NCBI GenBank assembly: GCA_963796315.1
Contig: CAWCLH010000020.1
Location: forward strand, 689,039 to 753,038
Reading direction: 5' to 3'
Length of the DNA: 64,000 bases
Origin: an uncultured Actinomycetota bacterium
GTDB lineage: Bacteria > Actinomycetota > Thermoleophilia > RBG-16-64-13
Position numbers and translations under genes: made by a program
Part shown: positions 36,974 through 48,745 of the stretch, piece by piece
Numbering within the stretch: the first letter of the stretch is position 1
Layout of the letters: every line of letters starts with the position of its first letter
Notes under the pieces: model-generated
The model's input: only the letters and a program-made list of their open reading frames with translations
Told to the model about the DNA's origin: nothing
Databases searched by the model: none

Positions 36974-37648
36974 GTGCAGCCGCCCGACGCCACGGTCGAC
37001 CCGGATGCAGCGCTCGTCGCCCGAGCCCGCCTGGGCGACCGGAAGGCCATGCACGAACTCTACCAACTGCACGAACGACGCGTGTACAACCTGGCCTTGC
37101 GGATGACCGGCAATCCCTGGGACGCCGCGGACGCCACCCAGGAGGCCTTCATCAAAGCCTTTACGGGCCTGGAGAGCTTCCGCGGAAACGCGCGCTTCAG
37201 CACCTGGATCCATCGCATCACCGTCAACGTCGTCTACGACCACCTGCGTCGCCGCCGCCCCGATCCCCTCGACGAGGAGACCATGGACCGGCTGGCATCG
37301 ACGCCCTCAGACCAGAGCCCGGGCCGCTCCGGGACGTTGCAGGGGATCGAGCCGATCCTGGACGGGCTCTCCGACGAGGTCACGTCCGCGCTCCTTTCCC
37401 TCGAGGAAAGCTTCCGGCTGACCGTCGTGTTGTGCGATCTGCTGGGCTTCAGCTACGGCGAGGCCGCCGAGATCCTGGAAGTCCAGGAGGGTACGGTCAA
37501 GTCCCGCCTGTTTCGTGCCCGGGCGCTGCTCGGGAAGCAGCTGGCGTCCCGGAGAGGGCCTCAGCCCTCTCCAGACCCAGGGACAGCCAGGAACCCCAAG
37601 GACGCGCCGGACGTCCCATCAACGAAGACCGCGAAAGAGACGGGTTGA
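36974..37648 (+). CDS. ECF-type RNA polymerase sigma factor
   Basis: DAADATQEAFIKAF..FRGNARFSTWIHRITVN (region 2); FSYGEAAEILEVQEGTVKSRLFRAR (region 4). Confidence 0.95.
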   Translation: MQPPDATVDPDAALVARARLGDRKAMHELYQLHERRVYNLALRMTGNPWDAADATQEAFIKAFTGLESFRGNARFSTWIHRITVNVVYDHLRRRRPDPLDEETMDRLASTPSDQSPGRSGTLQGIEPILDGLSDEVTSALLSLEESFRLTVVLCDLLGFSYGEAAEILEVQEGTVKSRLFRARALLGKQLASRRGPQPSPDPGTARNPKDAPDVPSTKTAKETG

Positions 37649-37649
37649 G

Positions 37650-38702
37650 GTGAACGAGCGGGACAGGCACATCGCCACTCCCCTGCCGGGGCCGGACGTG
37701 CACGTGCACGATTGGGGCGCGCTTGCGCTCGACTACGTCGACGGGACGCTGGGCCCGGAAGCCTCGTCGGCGGTGGAACAGCACCTCGCCTCCTGCGAGG
37801 AGTGCCGCTCGGTCCTCGCCCAGCAGTCGGCGGCCGCCCAGGCGCTCACCGCGGCTTCCCTAGCCCCGCCGCCGGCCGAGTTGCACGCCGCCGTGTTCGC
37901 CGCCCTGGACCTCTCACTGGCCGCCGCACGACCGGCGCGCCGGAACTGGTGGACCCGGCTGGAGCCGCGGCTGCTCCGGCCCCGCGTCCTGCTCCCTGCC
38001 GCAGCCGCCATCCTGCTGCTCGCCGTGACGTTGAACGGCCTGCCCCTCGCCCGCTGGGCGGCCGACGAGTCCGCCACTACCACGTTTCCGGCGGAGATGA
38101 CGGTCGATGCCGGCCAGGCCGCCGGAGCCACCGCCACGACTGCCGCGGGGAACGCGATGGGCTTCCTGTCGTCGACCGCGACGACGAGTTACGCGGCGCC
38201 CAGTGCACCGTCGACGACCGTCAGCTTGGGGACCACACGGGGCACCACGTCGAGTGTCACGCAGACGGCCTCCGATGCGTGGGAACCGAGTGCCTCCCTC
38301 CTCACGCCTTACCTGGTGGAAGCCCGGGCCCCGGCCGACGGCCATCCGGCGGCCCTGCTCGTCAGCTCCTCCCTCGGCGTGAGCCCGGTGACATCGAGTC
38401 TCTGGCTGGGCGGGCCGACCTTCGCCGTGCTGGTGCCCCGGATCGAGCTGAGCGCCCTGTTCGCCCGCCTCGAACGCACCGGCCTCACGCTGAATGCGTT
38501 CGCGCAGGGGAGCGCGCGCCCTGGTTCGCCGGCCGCGCTCCTGGCTCACGCGTGGCGCAGCTATCCCGTATTGGTGGCTCTGAACGTGGGAGACCCGCTG
38601 GGACCGGTGTTTATCCCGCAGACGCTGGGCCCTACCCCGGGGGACACGCCGCCGGCCGGCCTGGCCCTAGTCGTCGTCACCGCGTCGGATCAGGTCAGGT
38701 AG
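37650..38702 (+). CDS. zinc-finger (zf-HC2/ZAS) transmembrane anti-sigma factor
   Basis: DYVDGTL..EQHLASCEEC (HxxxCxxC), one TM segment, Thr/Ser-rich linker and an extracytoplasmic domain; directly follows the sigma gene. Confidence 0.88.
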   Translation: MNERDRHIATPLPGPDVHVHDWGALALDYVDGTLGPEASSAVEQHLASCEECRSVLAQQSAAAQALTAASLAPPPAELHAAVFAALDLSLAAARPARRNWWTRLEPRLLRPRVLLPAAAAILLLAVTLNGLPLARWAADESATTTFPAEMTVDAGQAAGATATTAAGNAMGFLSSTATTSYAAPSAPSTTVSLGTTRGTTSSVTQTASDAWEPSASLLTPYLVEARAPADGHPAALLVSSSLGVSPVTSSLWLGGPTFAVLVPRIELSALFARLERTGLTLNAFAQGSARPGSPAALLAHAWRSYPVLVALNVGDPLGPVFIPQTLGPTPGDTPPAGLALVVVTASDQVR

Positions 38703-39325
38703 AAGTACAGGGCGTAGAGCATCTCCTCGGCCGGGTTGATCGTGTGCACCGTCACGGCTTCCGGCACGGCGATCAAGGTCTCGGTGTAGTTGAAGATGAT
38801 GCGCACCCCGCCCTCGACCAAGGCGTCCGCGGCCTTCTGCGCCTCGGCGGGCGGCACCGCGATCACGCCGAGCACGATGCCGCTCTCGCGGCAGCGCTCG
38901 GCGATACGGCTGTTCGGTTCGATAGGGAGATCCCCCACCTGGCTGCCGATCTTGTGAGGATCGTTGTCGAACGCGGCCACGATGCGGAAGCCGTGCTCGC
39001 GGAAGATCGAAGAGGTCGCGATCGCGCTCCCCAGATGTCCCACTCCCACCAGCGCGATGTTGTGGATGCCGCTGGTGTGCAGGATCTCCTGGATCTGCGA
39101 GATCAACGAATCGATGTTGTAGCCCACGCCGCGCTTGCCGAACTTGCCGAAGGTGGAGAGGTCGCGTCGCACCTGAGTGGGGTTCACGTTCGCGTGCTCG
39201 CTGATCTCCTGGGAAGAGATGCTGTCCAAGCCCTGCTTCTTTGACTGGGTCAAGATCCGCAGGTAGGCAGACAGCCGTGCCGCGACACCCAACGTCAACT
39301 TCTCGGCCACCTTCTCGTCCTCCAT
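38690..39325 (-). CDS. rex: redox-sensing transcriptional repressor Rex
   Basis: RLSAYLRIL..ISSQEI..QVRRDLSTFGKFGKRGVGY, LVGVGHLGSA, AAFDNDPHKIG. Confidence 0.96.
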   Translation of the reverse strand: MEDEKVAEKLTLGVAARLSAYLRILTQSKKQGLDSISSQEISEHANVNPTQVRRDLSTFGKFGKRGVGYNIDSLISQIQEILHTSGIHNIALVGVGHLGSAIATSSIFREHGFRIVAAFDNDPHKIGSQVGDLPIEPNSRIAERCRESGIVLGVIAVPPAEAQKAADALVEGGVRIIFNYTETLIAVPEAVTVHTINPAEEMLYALYFYLT

Positions 39326-39377
39326 GCTTCCCCCAGATCCGGGCTCACGACGTCGACCGCCACAGCTCTCCAAGAGC

Positions 39378-39395
39378 TTGTGAACACTTTCCCAT
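39378..39395. promoter_or_regulatory. candidate Rex operator (autoregulation)
   Basis: TTGTGAA-CACT-TTCCCAT versus consensus TTGTGAA-N4-TTCACAA (2 mismatches), 53 nt upstream of rex. Confidence 0.65.
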
Positions 39396-39454
39396 AAAAT
39401 GCCAAACCGCACAAGCTGCCCCGACGAAGCCGACGCCGTTCACTCGGGTCCTGC

Positions 39455-40215: not shown

Positions 40216-43200
40216 TTACACGACCCCCGATGCCCCCGCCACCAGCAGCCGGCACAGCTCGTCCTGCTCGCAGCCCCGGCACTCGGGACCTTCCCGCGCC
40301 GGATACAATCCGGCCTGCAGGCCCGCGAGCGCTCCGTCCATCGCCCGTTCGAGGACAGGACGGTCGACCTGACGGAACGCCACATCGACCGGGCGGGACG
40401 GGTCGCGCAGGAGCAGGAAGCTGACCACCACCCGCTCCGCCCCGGCGAGTAACCCGGCCAGCGCGTACACCTTCGCCTGCAGGTCGTAGGGGGCAAGTAC
40501 CTCCTCCAGAGAGCGACCGTCGAGGCGGTTGGTCTTGTAGTCCACGATCCGCCACTCCTCGTCCCCTCGGAGCAGGAGGTCGAAGTAGCCGGTGAGCAGG
40601 ACGTCCCCGTGGACGAAGGAGAAGGGGACCTCCCGGGCTCCCTGAGCGAGCCGGGGATCGTCGACCAGGGACGAGTCCCAGAAGGCCGCGACCAGGGGAG
40701 CGGCCTCTCGGAACAGGGGTGTGGGCCCGTCTCCGAAGCCACCGAGAGCGGTCGCGCCGGCGGCGAGCAGACGATCGAGTCCGTCCCGATCGGGGCGGCC
40801 CCGGAGGTCGGCGACCTCCAGGGCCGCGTGCACCAGGGTTCCCAGAGCCCGCCCGTCGGGCTCGTCCGTGCCCCCACGGGCCGGAAGCGAAGGGTCGGAC
40901 TCTGGGACCTCGCCGTCTAAGGACGGAAGATGCAGCCCCAAGCACGCGCTCGAGGTAGTACCGCCGGGGACACTGCTCGTAGAGGTGCAGCGAAGAGAAG
41001 CTCACGGGCCCGCCCCCGACCCGGCCGGAGTACCGGCTGCAGGAAGGCGGGCGGCGGCGGCGCCCACGCGCCGGGGGCTTCCCCGCCGGCCTGCGATGCC
41101 CGGGCCTCGTCGTGACCGACGGCGTCAGGGCGAGGCAGGGAGTCGACCACCAAGTCGAGGCCGGTGACAGGCCGAAGCGGCCCGCCCTGCCAATCGCCCT
41201 CCACCCCCGCACTCGCGAGAAGACATGCCAGAGGATCGTCCCCGCCGCCGTTCCGCGGCGGGAGCCCGGTGACGATCACCCGCTCCTCGGCCCGGGTAAT
41301 CGCCACGTAGGCGAGCCTCTTCTCCTCCTCCGCCTCCTCGGCGGCCGCCTGCTCCCGCAGACGACCGATGGGGCCCAGTCCCAGGCGCTCCTCGTCCTTC
41401 TTGACGTACGAGGAGGGGAGCAGGATACCTCGGTCACCCTCCCGCCCCACCAGGAAGAGCGAGGACGAGCCTCTCGTCCGCGTCCGCCCGAGGCCGGCGA
41501 GCACCACCACGGGGAACTCGAGCCCCTTGGCCTTGTGGATGGTCATGATGCGGACCACGTCCTCGTTCTCGGCCAGGACCGCGGCGCTGCCCTCCTGGGC
41601 GGCCAGGTCGCCCCGCCGGGACAGGTGGGTGACGAACCGGCGAAGGTCGGGGCCTTCCACCGCCTCGAAGGCGGCGGCGAACAACTGCAGCTTCCTCAGG
41701 TTGGCGAAGCGACGCTTGCCCGAGGGTGCGGACAAGACCACCAGGTCGTAGTCGAAGGTCTCCAGGCAACGCTCGAGGAGGTCGGCCAGGCCCGGGCGGC
41801 CAAGCGATCCGCGAAGTGATTCGAGGCGTTCCCGGAACCGGCTGAGCCTCTGTAGCTCGACGGAGCCCGCCCCGTCCACCACGCCGCCACGCACCGTCTC
41901 CCAGAGAAACTCTCCCTGGTCGGCGCGGAGTTGCCGGTGCAGCAGGTAGAGGAGGTCGTCGGAGCAGCCCGCCAGCGGCGACCGCAGGACGGTGAGCAGG
42001 GCCAGGTCATCGCAAGGGTTGACCAGCACGCGGAGCAGCGCCAGGAGGTCGGTCACCTCCTCTCGAGCATAGTAGCCGCGACCGCCGACGACGTAAGCAG
42101 GGACGGCGGCCTGCTCGAGCGCGTCCTCGAACTGCTCTACGTGGGTGAAGGAGCGCAGCAGAACGACGATGTCGCCCGCGCTCCAGCCCTCCTCGTCGAT
42201 CAGCCTGCGGATACGCTGCCCGACTCCCCGGGCCTCGCGCTCGCGGTCCGGATCGTCCCCCCGTCCTCCTCCGTCGGCCTCCGCGAGCAGGAGGATCTCC
42301 ATCGCCGGTCCGAGCACGGGGTCTGACCCCTCGCGGCCGCGACGCGGACCCTCGGCGCCGCGGTGCGCCCGAAGGCGGGGAAACTCAGCACCGAAGAGCC
42401 GCTGGCCGGCGAAGAGATGGTTGATCACGTCCACGAGCGGCCCCCGCGAACGGAACGTCGTCGCCAGGGGCAGGACGGCGGCCCGTCCGCCCTCCCCCTC
42501 GCCGCACCGGTCGCGTCGCTGCAGGAAGACCTGAGGGTCCGCCCCCCGAAACGCGTAGATGCTCTGGTGGTAGTCCCCTACGGTGAGCAGGGTGCCTGCG
42601 CCCAGGCGGTCGATCAGACGGCACTGCAGGGCGTTCGTGTCCTGGAACTCGTCGACCATCAGGCGGGCTTCCGGGGCGAAAGGCACCAGCCCGCCCTCGA
42701 GGAGCCCCACCGTGTGCAGCTCCAGGTCGGCGAAGTCCAACATCCCCGCCTCGCCCTTCCGCCCCTCGTAAGCAGAGTGAAACTGTTGAAGGAGGCGGTC
42801 GATCGTCCGGGCCAACGGCACCAGGCAGTGGGCCGCCAGCACCCGCCGGTAGCTCTCAAGCGCCTCCCGCGCTTCCGCGAAGAGGGGCTTGGCTTGAGCG
42901 GCGCAGTTCATCGCCGGGAAGTACCGCAGGGTGCGTCTCAGGCTCAGGAGGGTGTCGGCGCTGCCGGGAAGCCACGCGCGGCACTCCCGCAGGAGCTCCG
43001 TGTTGCGCACGGCCGTCTTCGTATCGAAGCGGGCGGTCTCCCCGCAGACCCGATCCAGGACCCGACCGAACGCCTCCTTGGCCGGCCATAGGTCGGGAGG
43101 GTCCTCCACACGGAATCGAGGAGAGCGCTCGCCGGCGCCCCTCAACCGATCGTAGGCGGAGACCAGTTGGCCTTCGATCTCTCCTCGGAACCGCGCCATC

Positions 43201-43643
43201 AGGTCCAGCTCCGCCGCTCCCGCCTCGCCGACGGCCCGCGCCCAGACGTCGCGCCACACCTCCGCGCGAAGGAGAAGGGACGCGTCCTCGTCCAACAGTC
43301 CGAACTCGGGGTCGAGGCCGGCCTCCAGAGCGTGCTCTCGCAGCAAGCGGGCGCACAGGCTGTGGATGGTGCCGATGGGCGCCGCCTCCAGGGACCAGGC
43401 CAGGTCGGGTCTGCCCCGATCCAGCATGGCCCGCCGGATACGTTCCTTCAGCTCGGCAGCCGCTTTGCGGGTGAACGTCACCGTGGGCAGCAGCTCGATC
43501 GGGACCGCCTGATCGACGGCCGCTCGTACGTACCGCTCCACCAACAGCGAGGTCTTGCCGCTGCCCGCCCCGGCCGCGACGAAGACGGTGGGCTGGGCAG
43601 CATCCAGGACCCGGCCCTGTTCCTCGGTGAACGACAGCGTCAT
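40216..43643 (-). CDS. AddA/AdnB-type UvrD helicase with C-terminal PD-(D/E)XK nuclease, frameshifts near 41015 and 40945
   Basis: AGAGSGKT, TFTRKAAAELKERI, TIHSLC, VDEFQDTN, VGDYHQSIYAFRGA, MTIHKAKGLEF, LAYVAITRA; nuclease GYFDLL..IVDYKT..Q..Y. Confidence 0.92.
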
Positions 43644-46600
43644 CGTCTCCCCCGAGAGCGGCAGAGGGGACCCAACCGGCAGTAGGAGGGGCAGGATCGG
43701 GGAGACTCCGGCTGGATGCGACCCGCCCGCATGCCCTGGGCCGCGGCCCGCGCGGCGTCGAGGCAGGCGGCGAGCTCCGCCTCGAAAGCATCCTCCTCCA
43801 CCGCGGCGCTGCGCGACAGCCACGACCCCAGCAAGGGGGCGTGCTCTTTGAGGACCATGCCCCGCCGCTTCTCCGAGGCGAGCGCCACGTAGCCCCCGCC
43901 GGCCAGCCGCCGCTCCGGTGATGCGGCGCGAAGAGCCGACAGGTAGAGCGGGACCTGGAGCGCGCCGTTGGGGGCGAAGGTCGGACCGTAGGCCGTGCCG
44001 CCGCTCTTGTAATCGATGACGAAGACCGGCCCGTCCGCCGGTCCCACGTCGACGCGGTCGATCCGGCCGGACAGCCGGAAGCCGTCCAGGTCGACGCCGT
44101 CGCCCGCCCCCACCTCCTGCTCGAACGACGTCGGGAGCATCGAGCTGCCCGTGACGGCTTCGGCCGCCAGGAAGGCGAGCACCCGCTGACGGACCTCGAG
44201 CCCGGCCAGCCTGCGTTCCGCAGCGTCTCCCCGAGAGGCGTAGGCCTCGAGTCCGGCGTCGAGGTGGTGGTCCACCAGCGCCGCGGCCCGCTCCAAGCGG
44301 TCCTCGTCCAGCGGCAGCAACCCTTCGGTCCGCAACGCCCGATAGACGTCGGCCAGCACCTGGTGCATCACGGTCCCCTGCACGCGCGCGTCGAAAGGCA
44401 GCTCCAAGCTGACCGGACGCAGCAGCCGCTCGACGAACCAGGCGAACGGACACTGCGCATAGGATTCCAGCTCCGATGCGGAGAAGACCTCTCGCGGGCC
44501 CAGGTGGGCGAGGGCCAGGGGATGCTCCAGCGTCACCGGCGGCCGCCGCCACCGGGGTAGGTCCTCCAGGTGACGCGGGGCGTCCGCCGGTGGGCGCCGA
44601 GCCAGGGCGCAGGCGCGCAGGTACGCCCGCCGGCTGACGGGCGGCAGGGGACGCAGGTCGGGAGCGCTCCCGCCCGCCACCGGTAGGCCGAGTGGACGCC
44701 TCCTCCACGAGCGGGTCGACCACGTACCCCAGGTCCCGGGAGCGCCACACCGGCGGGCTGCCCAACGCCTCGTACGAGGCCGTCCAGTACGGGGAGACGA
44801 CGGCCTCGGCGCCATCATCCTCCGCGTTCCGCGCGGAGAGGTACAGCAGCTGCCAGGCTCGGGAGAGGGCGAAGGCGTAGAGCGCGCGTTCCTCTCCGGT
44901 GTCCGGATCGGCCAGCAGGGGAGCCGAGGCCGCGTCGTTGAGCGCGCGCCGCTCCGCATGCGACAGGAGACCCGGGCGTCGGGGCACGCCGGGGAACTCC
45001 CCGTCGACCAGACCCAGAAGGAAGACCACCTGCCAGCGACGGGCCCGCGCCCGATGCACGCTGAGGACGTGGACGACTCCACGGGCTTCCTCTCCCCCGG
45101 TGCGCACGGGCACCTGCTCCAAGACCGACGCCAACGCAGTCCAGGGAAGCCCGGCCTCCGCCTCGGAAGGGTCGGCGTGATGGCCCTCCCACTCGTCGAG
45201 CGTCCGCTCGAGCGCGGCCAGCGCCCGCGCATCCTCCTCCAGCTCCGCTCGAGGTGAGCGAGGCTCCCCGCGCCGCCGTGCGAAGGAGGCGGGCGGCGAG
45301 CGCGCGCAACTCCGCGACATCGGGACGAGCCCACCCTCCCTCTTCTGCGGGAGCGGCCCCGAGAGCCGCCCGGAACCCTGAAACCACCGTTGGCAGCGCC
45401 TGCTCGACCGCGGCCAGGAGCGCCTCTCCGGTGAGCCCTGGGTCCCGGATCAGGGTGGCTTCCAGCGTGTCGACAACGTCGGGGGGGATCCCGCTGAAAG
45501 GCGTACGCAGGTAGGTGAGCAGGCCGCTGCGGTCGGCGAGCGCGACCCCGCGAAGACCCGCCAGAAGGGCGTACCCCAGACCGGTCCGGCAGAAGGACAG
45601 CTCGCCGTCCAGGCGAAAGGGCACGCCCGCCCGCCGAAACACCCGTTCCATCACCTCCTGCCAGGGGCCCAGCTGGCGGACGAGGACCCCGATATCGTCC
45701 GGCGCCACACCCATGCGGAGGAGCTCCACGATCTCCGCTGCTGCGAGCTCCACCTCATTGCGACGCCCCGCCGAGAGGAGGAAGCGCACCCCCGCCAGCG
45801 GTCCATCCTCCGCCGGGGGCTCCGCTCCCGGTGCTTGGTCCGGGACGGCGTCGCCCGCGGCCAGCCGCTCGACACGGGCCAGCGCGCGTGACGAGAAGGC
45901 CCGCGGCTGCACCTCGAGCCGACGTACGGCCTCGGCCGTGTCCGTCCACAGTGAAGCCTCGAGGCCCGCGGAGGCGGCCGAGCCGGAGCTCGCCGCCCCA
46001 GACTCGTAGGGGAGCGCCAACAACACGGGGGCGTTCTGGGACAGGGCACGCAGCAGCCGGCGCTGCGACGGCGTGAACGACGAGAAGCCGTAGCAGGCGA
46101 CCGGCCTGCACCATCCGGTCGCCGCCTGTGCCGCCTCCAATGCGGCCTCCCCTCGCTCCGCCCGTCCTCGTCGTCTGCGCCGTTCGACGTACTCCTGGTG
46201 CAGCAGTGCGACGTCGGCGGCCACGGCTTCGGTCTCGGACGACCCCGCCCGCCAGTCGACAAGGACCTTCGCCACCTTGTCCGCCCCCAGTCCGCCGTCG
46301 GCCAGCTCCTCCAACAGCGCGGCCAGCCCTCGAACGGCGCCCGGCATCCCGCGGACGGCGCCCAGCCTAGGATAAGGGGAACCGCTCGAGCAGGGCGGCG
46401 GTCAGCAGCAGGCGCTCGGTGCGACCCATCAGCCGGGGGCGCCGCCCCAGCACGGACGCCACCACGCCGTCGAACGTCATGACCGGCCGGCTGCCCACCA
46501 CCGGCCCGATCCGTCGCAGCAACTCGAGGGAGACCGCCTGCTCCGCCGGCCGGGTGGGCACCACGATCACCGGTTCTGACACCCGCCGCTCTTCCCACCA

Positions 46601-46669
46601 CCCGATGACGTGGCCCAACTTGCCCGCATTGGGCGGGCCGAGCACGAGCGATATCCCAGAGTCAGCCAT
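43640..46669 (-). CDS. AddB/AdnA-type helicase-like scaffold with C-terminal PD-(D/E)XK nuclease, frameshifts near 46360, 45250 and 44700
   Basis: N-terminal GPPNAGKL, YGFSSFTPSQ, GLVDGEFP, ERALYAFALSRA; nuclease FSASELESYAQCPF..GRIDRVD..IDYKSG..LQVPLY..CPSYCRLGPLC. Stop overlaps the partner ATG (ATGA). Confidence 0.88.
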
Positions 46670-46676
46670 GCCCGGG

Positions 46677-46698
46677 ATTCTAACGCAGCCCTCGGACA
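46677..46698 (-). promoter_or_regulatory. PafBC/RecA-NDp-type promoter driving leaderless addB-like gene
   Basis: TGTCCG-N10-TAGAAT, then 7 nt to ATG 46669; known mycobacterial motif is TGTCGG-N10-TAnnnT. Confidence 0.75.
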
Positions 46699-46737
46699 GA
46701 CCACCGTTCCGGCCGACAGGTGCGCTACCCTTGCGTC

Positions 46738-47766
46738 ATGCCCCGCGATGACGAGAAACTGCTGCGCCAACTCTCCTTGGTCTCGTATCTGCTCTCTTCC
46801 GGCCGGCCGCGTTCCACGCGCGACATCCAGAGCTCGGTAGAGGGTTACGCCACGATGAAGGACGAGACGTTCGCCCGCCGTTTCTATGCCGACCGGGACG
46901 ATCTGGCCACGGCCGGCGTGGTGATCGAACAGGTGGACGATGCGGACGACCCGACCGGATACGCTTACTCCCTTCCCGCTCAGAACTACTACCTGGCCGA
47001 CCTCCACCTGACCGACGAGGAGCGGCGCAGCCTCGCGCTGGTGCTCGCCGTCATGGAAGGCCACTTCGCGTACGCGCGCCCGTTGCGCCTGGCTCTGGCG
47101 AGCCTCTTGGGCGGCCAGACGGGCCCCAGCGGTGACGACGTCGACCGGCTGGCCATCCGCCTCGCCGCCGATCGAGAAGCCTCTGCCGCAGGTGACCGCC
47201 TCGCCCGGCTGGACGAAGCGGTCGCACGCGGCAAGAGCGTGGTGTTCGATTACCGCACCGTCCGGGGCGATCACGCCGCCCGCACGGTCGACCCGTACAG
47301 CCTCTTCCGTATCGCCGGTCACTGGTACGTGGTCGGGCTCGATCACGACCGCGTCGACCTGCGCATGTTCCGGCTGGGACGCATCCAGGGGGCGGTCCAC
47401 TTCCTGACCAAGAAGCCGCGCGACTTCTCGATCCCCGACGACTACGATCCGGAGGCTTTTCGCTCGCGTCCCCCCTGGCTGCTGGGGACCGCGGTAGGAG
47501 TGGCCCGGGTCAGACTCGACCCGGCACTGAGCTGGTGGGTCGAGCGGACCTACCCCGGCATCCCCGCTCGCGCCCACGCGGAGGTCGCGGGCTGCGAGGC
47601 GGAGAACGTCGCGATCGATCTGCCCTACGCGGACGCTCACGCCCTGATCTCCTGGGTGCTGGGCCTGGGCGAACAGGCGGAGCTGCTGGGACCCCCCGAG
47701 CTCCGCGCCCGTCTGCTGGCGGGCCTGGACGCGATCCTCGCCGCGCACGAGGCCCCCGATGCCTGA
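46738..47766 (+). CDS. pafB: wHTH-WYL-WCX transcriptional regulator, PafB-like
   Basis: LSLVSYLL..IQSSVEGY..ETFARRFYADRDDL N-terminus; RTVDPYSL..GHWYVVGLDHDRVDLRMFRLGRI; WVLGLGEQAELLGPPELR. Confidence 0.85.
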   Translation: MPRDDEKLLRQLSLVSYLLSSGRPRSTRDIQSSVEGYATMKDETFARRFYADRDDLATAGVVIEQVDDADDPTGYAYSLPAQNYYLADLHLTDEERRSLALVLAVMEGHFAYARPLRLALASLLGGQTGPSGDDVDRLAIRLAADREASAAGDRLARLDEAVARGKSVVFDYRTVRGDHAARTVDPYSLFRIAGHWYVVGLDHDRVDLRMFRLGRIQGAVHFLTKKPRDFSIPDDYDPEAFRSRPPWLLGTAVGVARVRLDPALSWWVERTYPGIPARAHAEVAGCEAENVAIDLPYADAHALISWVLGLGEQAELLGPPELRARLLAGLDAILAAHEAPDA

Positions 47767-48745
47767 CGCCCCCATCGTCCCCGAACGCCTCTCGCGCGTC
47801 CTTTCCCTGCTGGGCTACCTGCTGGACGAGCGTCGTGGAGACCGGGTCCCGCTGGCGGATATCCACCGTGACCTGGGATTGGACCGCCGCGGGGTCGAGG
47901 AGGACCTCGCCGTGCTCAACCTGGTCAATTTCGGCGGGGGCAACTACGTGATCTACGCGTGGCTCGAAGGCGACCAGGTGGAGATCGACCGCCAACTGAT
48001 GAGTGACCCACTGGCCCGGCCCGCCCGCCTCTCTCCGTTGACGGCACGCGCCCTGCTGCTGGCGCTGGACCTCGTCGGCGACACGTTCACCGGCGCGGGC
48101 CTGGTTCCGCTCGCCTCGGTCCGGGACAAGGTGGCCGACCTCGTCGCCGAGCTTCCCGCTCCCGGTACCGTCGACCTGGTCGACCTGGCCCCCGTCGACG
48201 CCGGGGTGGTACGCGCCCTGAACCTGGGCATCCGCGAGCGGCGGCTGGTCAGGCTGACCTACTACACCTCCTCGCGCGGGGAGCTGCGAGAGCGGATCGT
48301 CGAGCCCTACCTGCTCTTCCATTCGGGGACCGCGTGGTACCTCGAGGCCTTCTGCCGGACGGCCGGCGGCGAGCGGACGTTTCGCCTCGACCTGGTCCGA
48401 GAGGCCGTCCCGTCCGAGGAGACCTTCAGCCCCCGGCCCGAGCTCGAAGCCAGACGGAGACCGGAGGAATCGCTCTTGCCCGCCTCCGGAGCCGCGGTCG
48501 CGACCGTCCGGTTCCCCGCCGGCCACCGGATCCGTCTGGAGGAGCAGGGCCTCTCCGTCGAAACGGGGAAGGACGGCGACGTGCGGGCCCGAATCCCCTA
48601 TCTAGACGAGCGATGGTTGGTGCGCGAGGTCCTGCGCTACGCGGGGGAGGCCGTGATCGAGGAGCCTGCGGAAGCGAGGGCGTCGCTGGTGCGTTCCGCG
48701 CGCTCGCTGAAGGAACGCTACCGGCGCCTGCCGACGACCGAGTGA
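47759..48745 (+). CDS. pafC: wHTH-WYL-WCX transcriptional regulator, PafC-like
   Basis: ERLSRVLSLLGYL..VEEDLAVL, RPARLSPLTARALLLAL, YYTSSRGELRERIVEP..WYLEAFC..RTFRLD; 8-nt overlap with pafB. Confidence 0.85.
   Translation: MPDAPIVPERLSRVLSLLGYLLDERRGDRVPLADIHRDLGLDRRGVEEDLAVLNLVNFGGGNYVIYAWLEGDQVEIDRQLMSDPLARPARLSPLTARALLLALDLVGDTFTGAGLVPLASVRDKVADLVAELPAPGTVDLVDLAPVDAGVVRALNLGIRERRLVRLTYYTSSRGELRERIVEPYLLFHSGTAWYLEAFCRTAGGERTFRLDLVREAVPSEETFSPRPELEARRRPEESLLPASGAAVATVRFPAGHRIRLEEQGLSVETGKDGDVRARIPYLDERWLVREVLRYAGEAVIEEPAEARASLVRSARSLKERYRRLPTTE

Follow-up and report, generated by a model that had tools for sequence, protein, structure and literature searches.

Promoters of the PafBC-dependent class require PafBC together with single-stranded DNA (ssDNA), are induced by DNA damage, and start transcription 6 to 8 nucleotides (nt) after the -10 hexamer. 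The consensus described for these promoters is tGTCgg(N10)tA(N3)T, with the box at positions -23 to -28; only the GTC of the box is given as strictly conserved (PMC8635444), and its two guanines are read by residues R46 and R50 of PafB (M. smegmatis numbering). In M. smegmatis, adnA is described as exclusively PafBC dependent (PMC8682763). A review presents pafBC as tightly associated with the Pup-proteasome locus (PMC8223512).

Here, a window of 64,000 nt (contig CAWCLH010000020.1 of assembly GCA_963796315.1, positions 689,039 to 753,038) from an uncultured bacterium of the Thermoleophilia was analyzed. In this window, a pafBC-like gene pair lies back to back with an addBA-like operon. The genes and the elements between them are as follows.

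40216 to 43643, minus strand: addA-like gene, UvrD-type helicase and PD-(D/E)XK nuclease (Pfam UvrD-helicase, UvrD_C, PDDEXK_1).
43640 to 46669, minus strand: addB-like gene, Walker A N terminus and PD-(D/E)XK nuclease C terminus (Pfam PDDEXK_1).
46667 to 46669, minus strand: ATG of the addB-like gene, with the transcription start predicted from the geometry at A 46669 or the preceding base (leaderless).
46677 to 46682, minus strand: -10 hexamer TAGAAT of the addBA promoter, at N10 from the TGTCCG core.
46691 to 46700, minus strand: -26 element TCTGTCCGAG, with the core TGTCCG at 46698 to 46693 and a preceding c at 46699.
46713 to 46718, minus strand: distal TGTCGG box (preceding c at 46719), most likely a chance match.
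46720 to 46731, plus strand: core promoter of pafB, made up of GTGCGC and then the -10 hexamer TACCCT (46726 to 46731), assigned from sequence and conservation.
46738 to 47766, plus strand: pafB-like gene, wHTH-WYL-WCX (Pfam WYL, WCX), with a predicted leaderless start at A 46738.
47759 to 48745, plus strand: pafC-like gene, HTH_PafC-WYL-WCX (Pfam HTH_PafC, WYL, WCX), overlapping pafB by 8 nt.

Comparison with the mycobacterial system revealed a close likeness. As in the PafBC promoters described for M. smegmatis and M. tuberculosis (recA P1 and adnAB; PMC8635444, PMC8682763, PMC8223512), the addBA promoter has a nonpalindromic, GTC-core box at about -26, a distance of exactly 10 nt from this box to a sigmaA-type TAnnnT hexamer, and no -35 element. 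The targets are, as in those descriptions, DNA repair genes that include an end-resection helicase-nuclease, lexA, and uvrA, and the regulator is likewise a PafB/PafC pair of the wHTH-WYL-WCX type. The locus differs from the mycobacterial accounts in the fifth base of the box, which is an invariant C at the addBA promoter, whereas theirs is a weakly preferred G, and in the TC that precedes the box in the best sites. It also differs in the position of pafBC, which stands back to back with addBA and not beside pupylation genes, and in the recognition helix of PafB, which has the pattern R-R-x4-R instead of the R46-x3-R50 of M. smegmatis.

Other described WYL regulators resemble the locus in part. 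PafBC of Arthrobacter aurescens (PDB 6sj9; PMC6789036) is described with the same domain order and is a natural fusion, like the single fused PafB-PafC open frames of about 700 amino acids found in many relatives of the present organism; here, the two genes are separate, and the similarity to the A. aurescens protein is modest (E value, 1.4e-17). The accounts of SiwR from M. smegmatis (PMC10693628) and DriD from Caulobacter (PMC9186387) likewise place a WYL gene beside a damage-induced target operon, but SiwR and DriD are single-gene homodimers, whereas the pair here is heterodimeric, with a genome-wide regulon and a hybrid -26/-10 promoter.

The 68-bp gap (46670 to 46737) contains two core promoters back to back, that of addB on the minus strand and that of pafB on the plus strand. 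The proximal module on the minus strand reads TCTGTCCGAG-N8-TAGAAT-7 nt-ATG. Its TGTCCG box, in which the GTC is present, begins 16 nt upstream of where the -10 hexamer begins, and the 7 nt between TAGAAT and the ATG are those from 46676 to 46670. The distal TGTCGG box lies on the same strand, with 20 bp from start to start between it and the proximal TGTCCG. On the plus strand, TACCCT is followed by 6 nt and by the pafB ATG at 46738 to 46740. All motif coordinates of an earlier note on this DNA, which had been made from the letters alone, were confirmed on both strands. The same note had stated that neither gene has a Shine-Dalgarno sequence, and this is borne out: at the start codons of addB and pafB, no GGAGG-like sequence was seen, nor is there space for one. 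A -35 element was not recognized for the addBA promoter either, where ggtggt and cggtgg at 17 to 18 nt 5' of TAGAAT are unlike TTGACA (read by eye).

The promoter of pafBC, GTGCGC-TACCCT, is probably ordinary, driven by its -10 hexamer, and constitutive. The GTGCGC 5' of this hexamer was considered as a special operator and rejected. GTGCGCTAnnnT, of the GTGCGC-TAnnnT form, has nine copies genome-wide including that of pafB, several of them before start codons, and it precedes other genes too, so that GTGCGC looks like a general promoter feature. GTGCGC directly 5' of TAnnnT often stands 5 to 7 nt before an ATG (e.g., at C11:215666, C20:237496, and C20:641063), and judging from these sites, the combination may represent, for leaderless genes, an extended -10 feature specific to this lineage.

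The genome of the host comprises 3.13 Mb in 21 contigs, with a G+C content of about 68%. A genome scan with spacings of k = 4 to 18 revealed 16 occurrences of TGTCCG-Nk-TAnnnT at k = 10, compared to 0 to 7 at the 14 other spacings. For [TC]GTCCG-Nk-TAnnnT, 40 occurrences were found at k = 10 and 4 to 19 at other spacings. The extended form TCTGTCCG was found 8 times at the matching spacing and 0 to 1 times elsewhere, and GTCCGA[GC]-N8 was found 19 times, compared to 0 to 3 at other spacings. Six genome sites have the exact 10-mer TCTGTCCGAG with N8-TAnnnT after it; TGTCCGAG has 194 genome copies, 6 of them with TAnnnT at N8. No spacing spike was obtained in the genome with the mycobacterial form TGTCGG (4 occurrences at k = 10 versus 0 to 5 elsewhere), and TGTC-N12-TAnnnT gave 43 occurrences versus 17 to 37 at the other spacings tried. 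The spacing signal is thus far sharper with the local form TGTCCG than with TGTC alone. These results indicate that TGTCCG is the consensus form in this organism and that TGTCGG is the odd one. The earlier note had located both boxes correctly but had taken TGTCGG as the perfect box and TGTCCG as an imperfect one; this ranking does not hold, since TGTCGG shows no spike, and the box treated as imperfect is the canonical one. A position weight matrix (PWM) built from 10 sites was also run over the genome, with the reversed genome as the control. Nine nonseed sites scored higher than the reversed-genome maximum of 17.9. The sites above the control include the promoters of rmuC, of an SLT gene upstream of uvrB, and of holA, and the recJ promoter scored 17.4.

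Could the proximal match be a chance resemblance, with addBA under an ordinary constitutive promoter? Actinobacterial promoters often lack a -35 element, and TAGAAT alone could support basal transcription. The spacing spike, the content of the regulon, and the conservation of the box inside a variable spacer, the last two of which are described below, make such a coincidence extremely unlikely. The genome-wide spacing spike and the conservation in relatives place the proximal module beyond chance. Together with the regulon, they also uphold the proposal that the box-N10-TAnnnT arrangement is the PafBC-type promoter of addBA.

The open reading frames 3' of the module sites were named by Pfam. 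Sites of the TGTCCG form precede addBA, lexA, a UvrD-like helicase gene, and recQ (6 nt between the -10 hexamer and the ATG), as well as genes for a DUF2779 nuclease and an OB+HD nuclease and one gene with no assigned function. Another site of this form precedes an LppM-like gene that is followed by sbcD and sbcC. An EamA transporter gene and a pirin gene also have the TGTCCG form, and a further site of this form was located within mcsB, upstream of clpC. CGTCCG itself, or a variant close to it, stands before uvrA (8 nt to the ATG), recJ, rmuC, the SLT gene upstream of uvrB, holA, dnaG, nrdR with ribonucleotide reductase, and a PHP-domain polymerase gene; it is also found at the housekeeping or unrelated genes purC and thrS and at genes for a HAD hydrolase, an ABC transporter, DUF1015, and DUF520. 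The module is clearly enriched at DNA repair genes. Because it also stands before housekeeping genes or inside genes, the motif alone does not define membership in the regulon. Upstream of recA of the host genome, no recognizable module was found, although recA would be expected to carry one as a classic PafBC target, and in this the organism differs from mycobacteria. A genome scan at repair genes, which had been suggested as a check of the proposal, was thus positive for lexA, uvrD, recQ, sbcDC, uvrA, recJ, and rmuC and negative for recA.

Several of the sites have further features. The lexA module is present in 8 of 30 lexA loci of the family, the own genome included (L139 to L168). Eighteen of the 22 lexA loci without the module were printed, and all 18 have GAAC-N4-GTTC around or after TATACT; in 14 of these 18 promoters, a second GAAC-N4-GTTC box abuts the first one upstream (both read by eye). 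In the inspected part of the own lexA leader, no GAAC-N4-GTTC box was found. The PHP-domain polymerase gene (L169; G000 C20:855377-858577) has the module CGTCCGAG-N8-TAGGCT, a LexA-type box, CGAACAGATGTTC, a few bases after the -10 hexamer, and a second one, CGAACATTTGTTCG, about 40 nt upstream of the module. This arrangement of motifs suggests dual control of the gene by PafBC and the SOS response, as has reportedly been seen for dnaE2 in mycobacteria. The recQ gene (C6:100467, plus strand) also belongs to a back-to-back pair, with GCGC-TACACT-6 nt-ATG of a divergent gene at C6:100416 on the minus strand. At another locus (L001; G000 C6:13967-17167), two boxes lie on the same strand 21 bp apart (C6:14146 and C6:14167), in the order TGTCCGAA and then TCTGTCCGAG-N8-TAGACT. 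The gene downstream encodes at least about 95 amino acids, starts with a GTG 31 nt after the -10 hexamer, has no Pfam match, and contains a frame break.

Homologs of PafB were found in 59 of 61 related genomes, and 30 family loci, the own locus included, were compared. The N terminus of the addB-like gene diverges from pafB in 30/30 loci, and [TC][GA]TCCG-N10-TAnnnT is present on the addB strand in 28/30; the two exceptions have N9 spacing (L030) and a CGTCCT box (L047). The addB -10 hexamer at N10 is TACAAT, TAGAAT, or TAGACT in the relatives. The first in-frame addB start codon follows the -10 hexamer by 0 to 10 nt in 28 of the 29 evaluable loci, mostly by 7 nt (10 loci). On the pafB side, TAnnnT is followed by 6 nt and ATG in 26/30 loci and by 7 nt in 3 more. 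Alignment of 15 gap sequences (alignment A2) revealed invariant columns on both -10 hexamers and on the box, where the columns read GGA..G on the plus strand, corresponding to C..TCC on the addB strand; TG.G.TA..CT is invariant on the pafB side. The N terminus of PafB (M-x-R-D-x-x-K-L-x-R-Q-L-S-L) is kept from residue 1 onward, and this establishes the ATG at 46738 as the start codon. The conserved distance between -10 hexamer and ATG supports the view, already expressed in the earlier note, that both addB and pafB are leaderless, with predicted transcription starts. Among 80 further named loci, partly from the same genomes, 40 have the module upstream of pafB, and most of the other 40 belong to a more distant group with 38 to 41% identity.

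The distance between the box and the pafB -10 hexamer is 28 nt in 12 of the 28 module loci, with a 13th (L047) assigned by eye, and 27 nt in the host; the other loci have 12 to 17, 29, 39, 63 to 81, or 157 nt. The distance of 157 nt is due to about five tandem copies of the 16-nt unit gcggatgctgaccggc in one addB-pafB gap (L051, from G034). A fixed coupling of the two promoters was considered, and with a distance so variable, a strict geometric constraint is not supported. In the relatives, a -35-like cTGACC of pafB lies only about 5 nt from the box; this element is missing in the host genome.

Among solved structures, the best relative of PafB is PafB of M. smegmatis from the RNA polymerase (RNAP) complex (7p5x, chain AY; E value, 1.5e-19), with which the present PafB aligns from residue 7. 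NCBIfam gave no name for PafB or PafC. The WYL domains of these two proteins are the only ones found in the assembly, which is reported as 78% complete. At the pafB/pafC junction (47658 to 47926), the related contigs have no gap. Residues 45 to 56 of PafB, F-A-R-R-F-Y-A-D-R-D-D-L, form the recognition helix. R46 of M. smegmatis PafB aligns with R47, which is invariant in a 12-sequence family alignment, as are R48 and R53. R50 of M. smegmatis aligns with A51, a position that is A, D, or G across the family, so that one of the two base-reading arginines is absent; R50 and A51 are paired in a HMMER alignment that has no gap here and is flanked by F and L. The arginines R211 and R214, described as needed for ssDNA binding by PafB in M. 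smegmatis (PMC11804915), have as their aligned counterparts in the WYL domain R212, which is invariant, and R215, which is conserved to at least 90%. From these alignments, the altered helix of PafB and the GTCC box may belong together. A count of the helix motif over loci L059 to L138 is biased, as the motif itself was among the search patterns, and was not used as evidence. The neighbors of pafBC are addBA and genes for a holin-like membrane protein and a T2SSE ATPase, with no pupylation genes nearby. The Pup ligase family PF03136 was found in 0/37 family genomes, 25 of which are at least 90% complete, and a PafB-like gene was found in 35 of these 37. PafBC is here a "proteasome accessory factor" in name only.

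These data bear on the identity of the reader of the module. The module could be genuine and be read by an alternative sigma factor or an unrelated HTH activator, with the adjacency of pafBC being coincidental. In line with this, PafB has no equivalent of R50, its role is predicted from sequence, an ECF sigma/anti-sigma pair is encoded about 9 kb away in the window, and other regulators may be missing from a genome that is 78% complete. Against it, no other WYL protein was found in the assembly, and all of the GTC core, the targets, and the 30/30 linkage with the regulator gene fit PafBC. Moreover, 10 nt do not leave enough space for a sigma -35/-10 pair, and this spacing is the hallmark of the PafBC class as described in PMC8635444. 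A reader other than PafBC is accordingly considered quite improbable.

The distal TGTCGG box was assessed separately. TGTCGG has 2,061 copies on both strands of the 3.13-Mb genome, and by chance, about 0.03 copies of TGTCGG and about 0.06 of TGTC[CG]G would be expected among the free positions of the gap on either strand. No TAnnnT stands at N10 from the distal box. The box was found in none of 29 relatives' loci, where its position falls in a variable stretch of alignment A2, and a consistent second box was not seen among the 80 further loci. A palindromic partner of the box was not seen at the addBA promoter either; an opposite-strand box occurs solely at recQ, 39 nt upstream. Mycobacterial PafBC is described as needing RNAP on the DNA (PMC11804915), so binding to a lone box without a -10 hexamer is not to be expected. 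In all likelihood, the distal TGTCGG is a chance match without function.

The earlier note had suggested for the distal box a possible role in autoregulation or cooperative binding, which is not supported for a box that is unconserved, has the form that is not enriched in the genome, and lacks a -10 hexamer. In such a role, a second PafBC or the same complex would bind there, about two helical turns upstream, and would either repress pafBC, as the location of the box at -25 to -20 of the pafB promoter would allow, or help to activate addBA. A same-strand TGTC[CG]G stands 20 to 21 bp 5' of the proximal box at 2 of 14 module promoters (addBA and C6:14146), with an expectation of about 0.036 per promoter within 55 positions, but this count was noticed post hoc. 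As the host lacks the cTGACC that its relatives have in the pafB promoter, that space may be taken by something else. According to the accounts available for mycobacteria, however, PafBC does not bind promoters without RNAP, whether ssDNA is present or not (PMC11804915), and PafBC does not change in level, either as mRNA or as protein, on DNA stress (PMC8223512, PMC6789036). A function of the distal box therefore appears unlikely.

The operon on the minus strand was compared with known end-resection enzymes. AddAB of the Bacillus type and AdnAB of mycobacteria are likewise encoded by two-gene operons, in which the first subunit has a Walker A N terminus and a PD-(D/E)XK nuclease C terminus and the second has a UvrD-type motor and a PD-(D/E)XK nuclease. 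AddA consists of a UvrD-type motor and a RecB-type nuclease, and AddB consists of a nuclease domain and a degenerate motor. The addA ATG at 43643 overlaps the addB stop codon, and the C-terminal part of addA is in another frame. The best NCBIfam match of the fragmented addA gene is addA_Gpos (E value, 4.9e-95; 319 bits versus a cutoff of 708), and the AddB models gave weak matches to the fragmented addB. All NCBIfam matches are below the curated cutoffs, partly because the genes are fragmented in the assembly, and the assignment to AddAB rather than AdnAB is tentative. By analogy, addBA can be regarded as the functional counterpart of adnAB. Just past the addA end of the operon, genes for an ECF sigma factor with a zf-HC2 anti-sigma factor and for a Rex-like redox repressor (CoA_binding and Put_DNA-bind_N) were found (36974 to 38702 and 38690 to 39412).

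The addB gene is read in several frames, with breaks near 46368 to 46373, 45248 to 45250, and 44653 to 44693. Related short-read contigs (about 94 to 95% identity) lack 1, 1, and 10 bases, respectively, at the three breaks. Since the bases are lacking exactly at the breaks, these represent assembly errors or strain-private differences and not a dead operon, and on this comparison, they are probably assembly indels rather than marks of a pseudogene. Other frame-split genes are recA (G000 C20:518348-519143), recQ (L009), uvrA (L175), and clpC (L003). With indel errors in the assembly, spacings may be wrong by single bases, and their exact values rest partly on the related contigs, in which no indel was found between 46669 and 46708/46713, where the long contig pieces end.

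The observed motifs, their enrichment and conservation, and the identities of the genes argue for a reading in which the addBA promoter is PafBC dependent, damage induced, and leaderless, the pafBC promoter is ordinary, and the distal box is a chance match; the probability of this reading is estimated at about 80%. Weighing against it are the missing module at recA, the presence of the module at only 8 of 30 lexA loci, the module sites at housekeeping genes or within genes, the alanine in place of R50, and the indels of the assembly. The minus-strand promoter would be a hybrid of the RecA-NDp type, with the -26 element (TC)TGTCCG(AG), a spacing of 10 nt, and the housekeeping -10 hexamer TAGAAT but lacking a -35 element. 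In analogy to the mycobacterial system, DNA damage would produce ssDNA, which would bind to the WYL domains of the PafB and PafC proteins encoded next to the operon. The activated PafB/PafC is then predicted to insert between the -26 element and region 4 of the sigma factor of the RNAP positioned at the -10 hexamer ("sigma adaptation"). This would switch on a leaderless addB-addA mRNA, starting at or next to the predicted position, and thereby end resection at double-strand breaks. The same module would drive a DNA repair regulon that includes lexA, uvrD, recQ, sbcDC, uvrA, recJ, rmuC, and other genes.

The short distance between the two promoters may have a consequence of its own. The predicted starts of addB and pafB are 69 bp apart, so that the polymerase footprints must overlap, and this layout makes interference between the addBA and pafBC promoters possible. 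As the proximal box also lies at -45 to -40 of the pafB promoter, a complex of PafBC and RNAP on the addBA promoter could exclude RNAP from pafBC. A more far-reaching proposal is that PafBC is hard-wired to addBA in a family in which no pupylation genes were found, that the helix (R-R-x4-R) and the box (GTCC) have changed together, and that negative feedback on pafBC is built in. This combined proposal is rather doubtful. If it were true, pafBC would be subject to negative feedback by occupancy of the addBA promoter, which is not described in mycobacteria.

In the literature searched, no paper that deals with both PafBC and Thermoleophilia was found, and within that literature, the PafBC promoter class has not been described before in the Thermoleophilia clade. 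The site itself is a further member of a promoter class already known from mycobacteria and will not surprise a specialist. It extends the class of PafBC sigma-adaptation promoters to uncultured, deep-branching Thermoleophilia (Gaiellales-like) and provides the local -26 form and a first regulon list for this clade. It also indicates that pafBC can occur apart from the Pup-proteasome locus, in contrast to the tight association presented in the review (PMC8223512). The addBA operon is likely the oldest target of the adjacent pafBC genes, and the change in the recognition helix, together with that in the box, amounts to a natural experiment on DNA reading by PafB.
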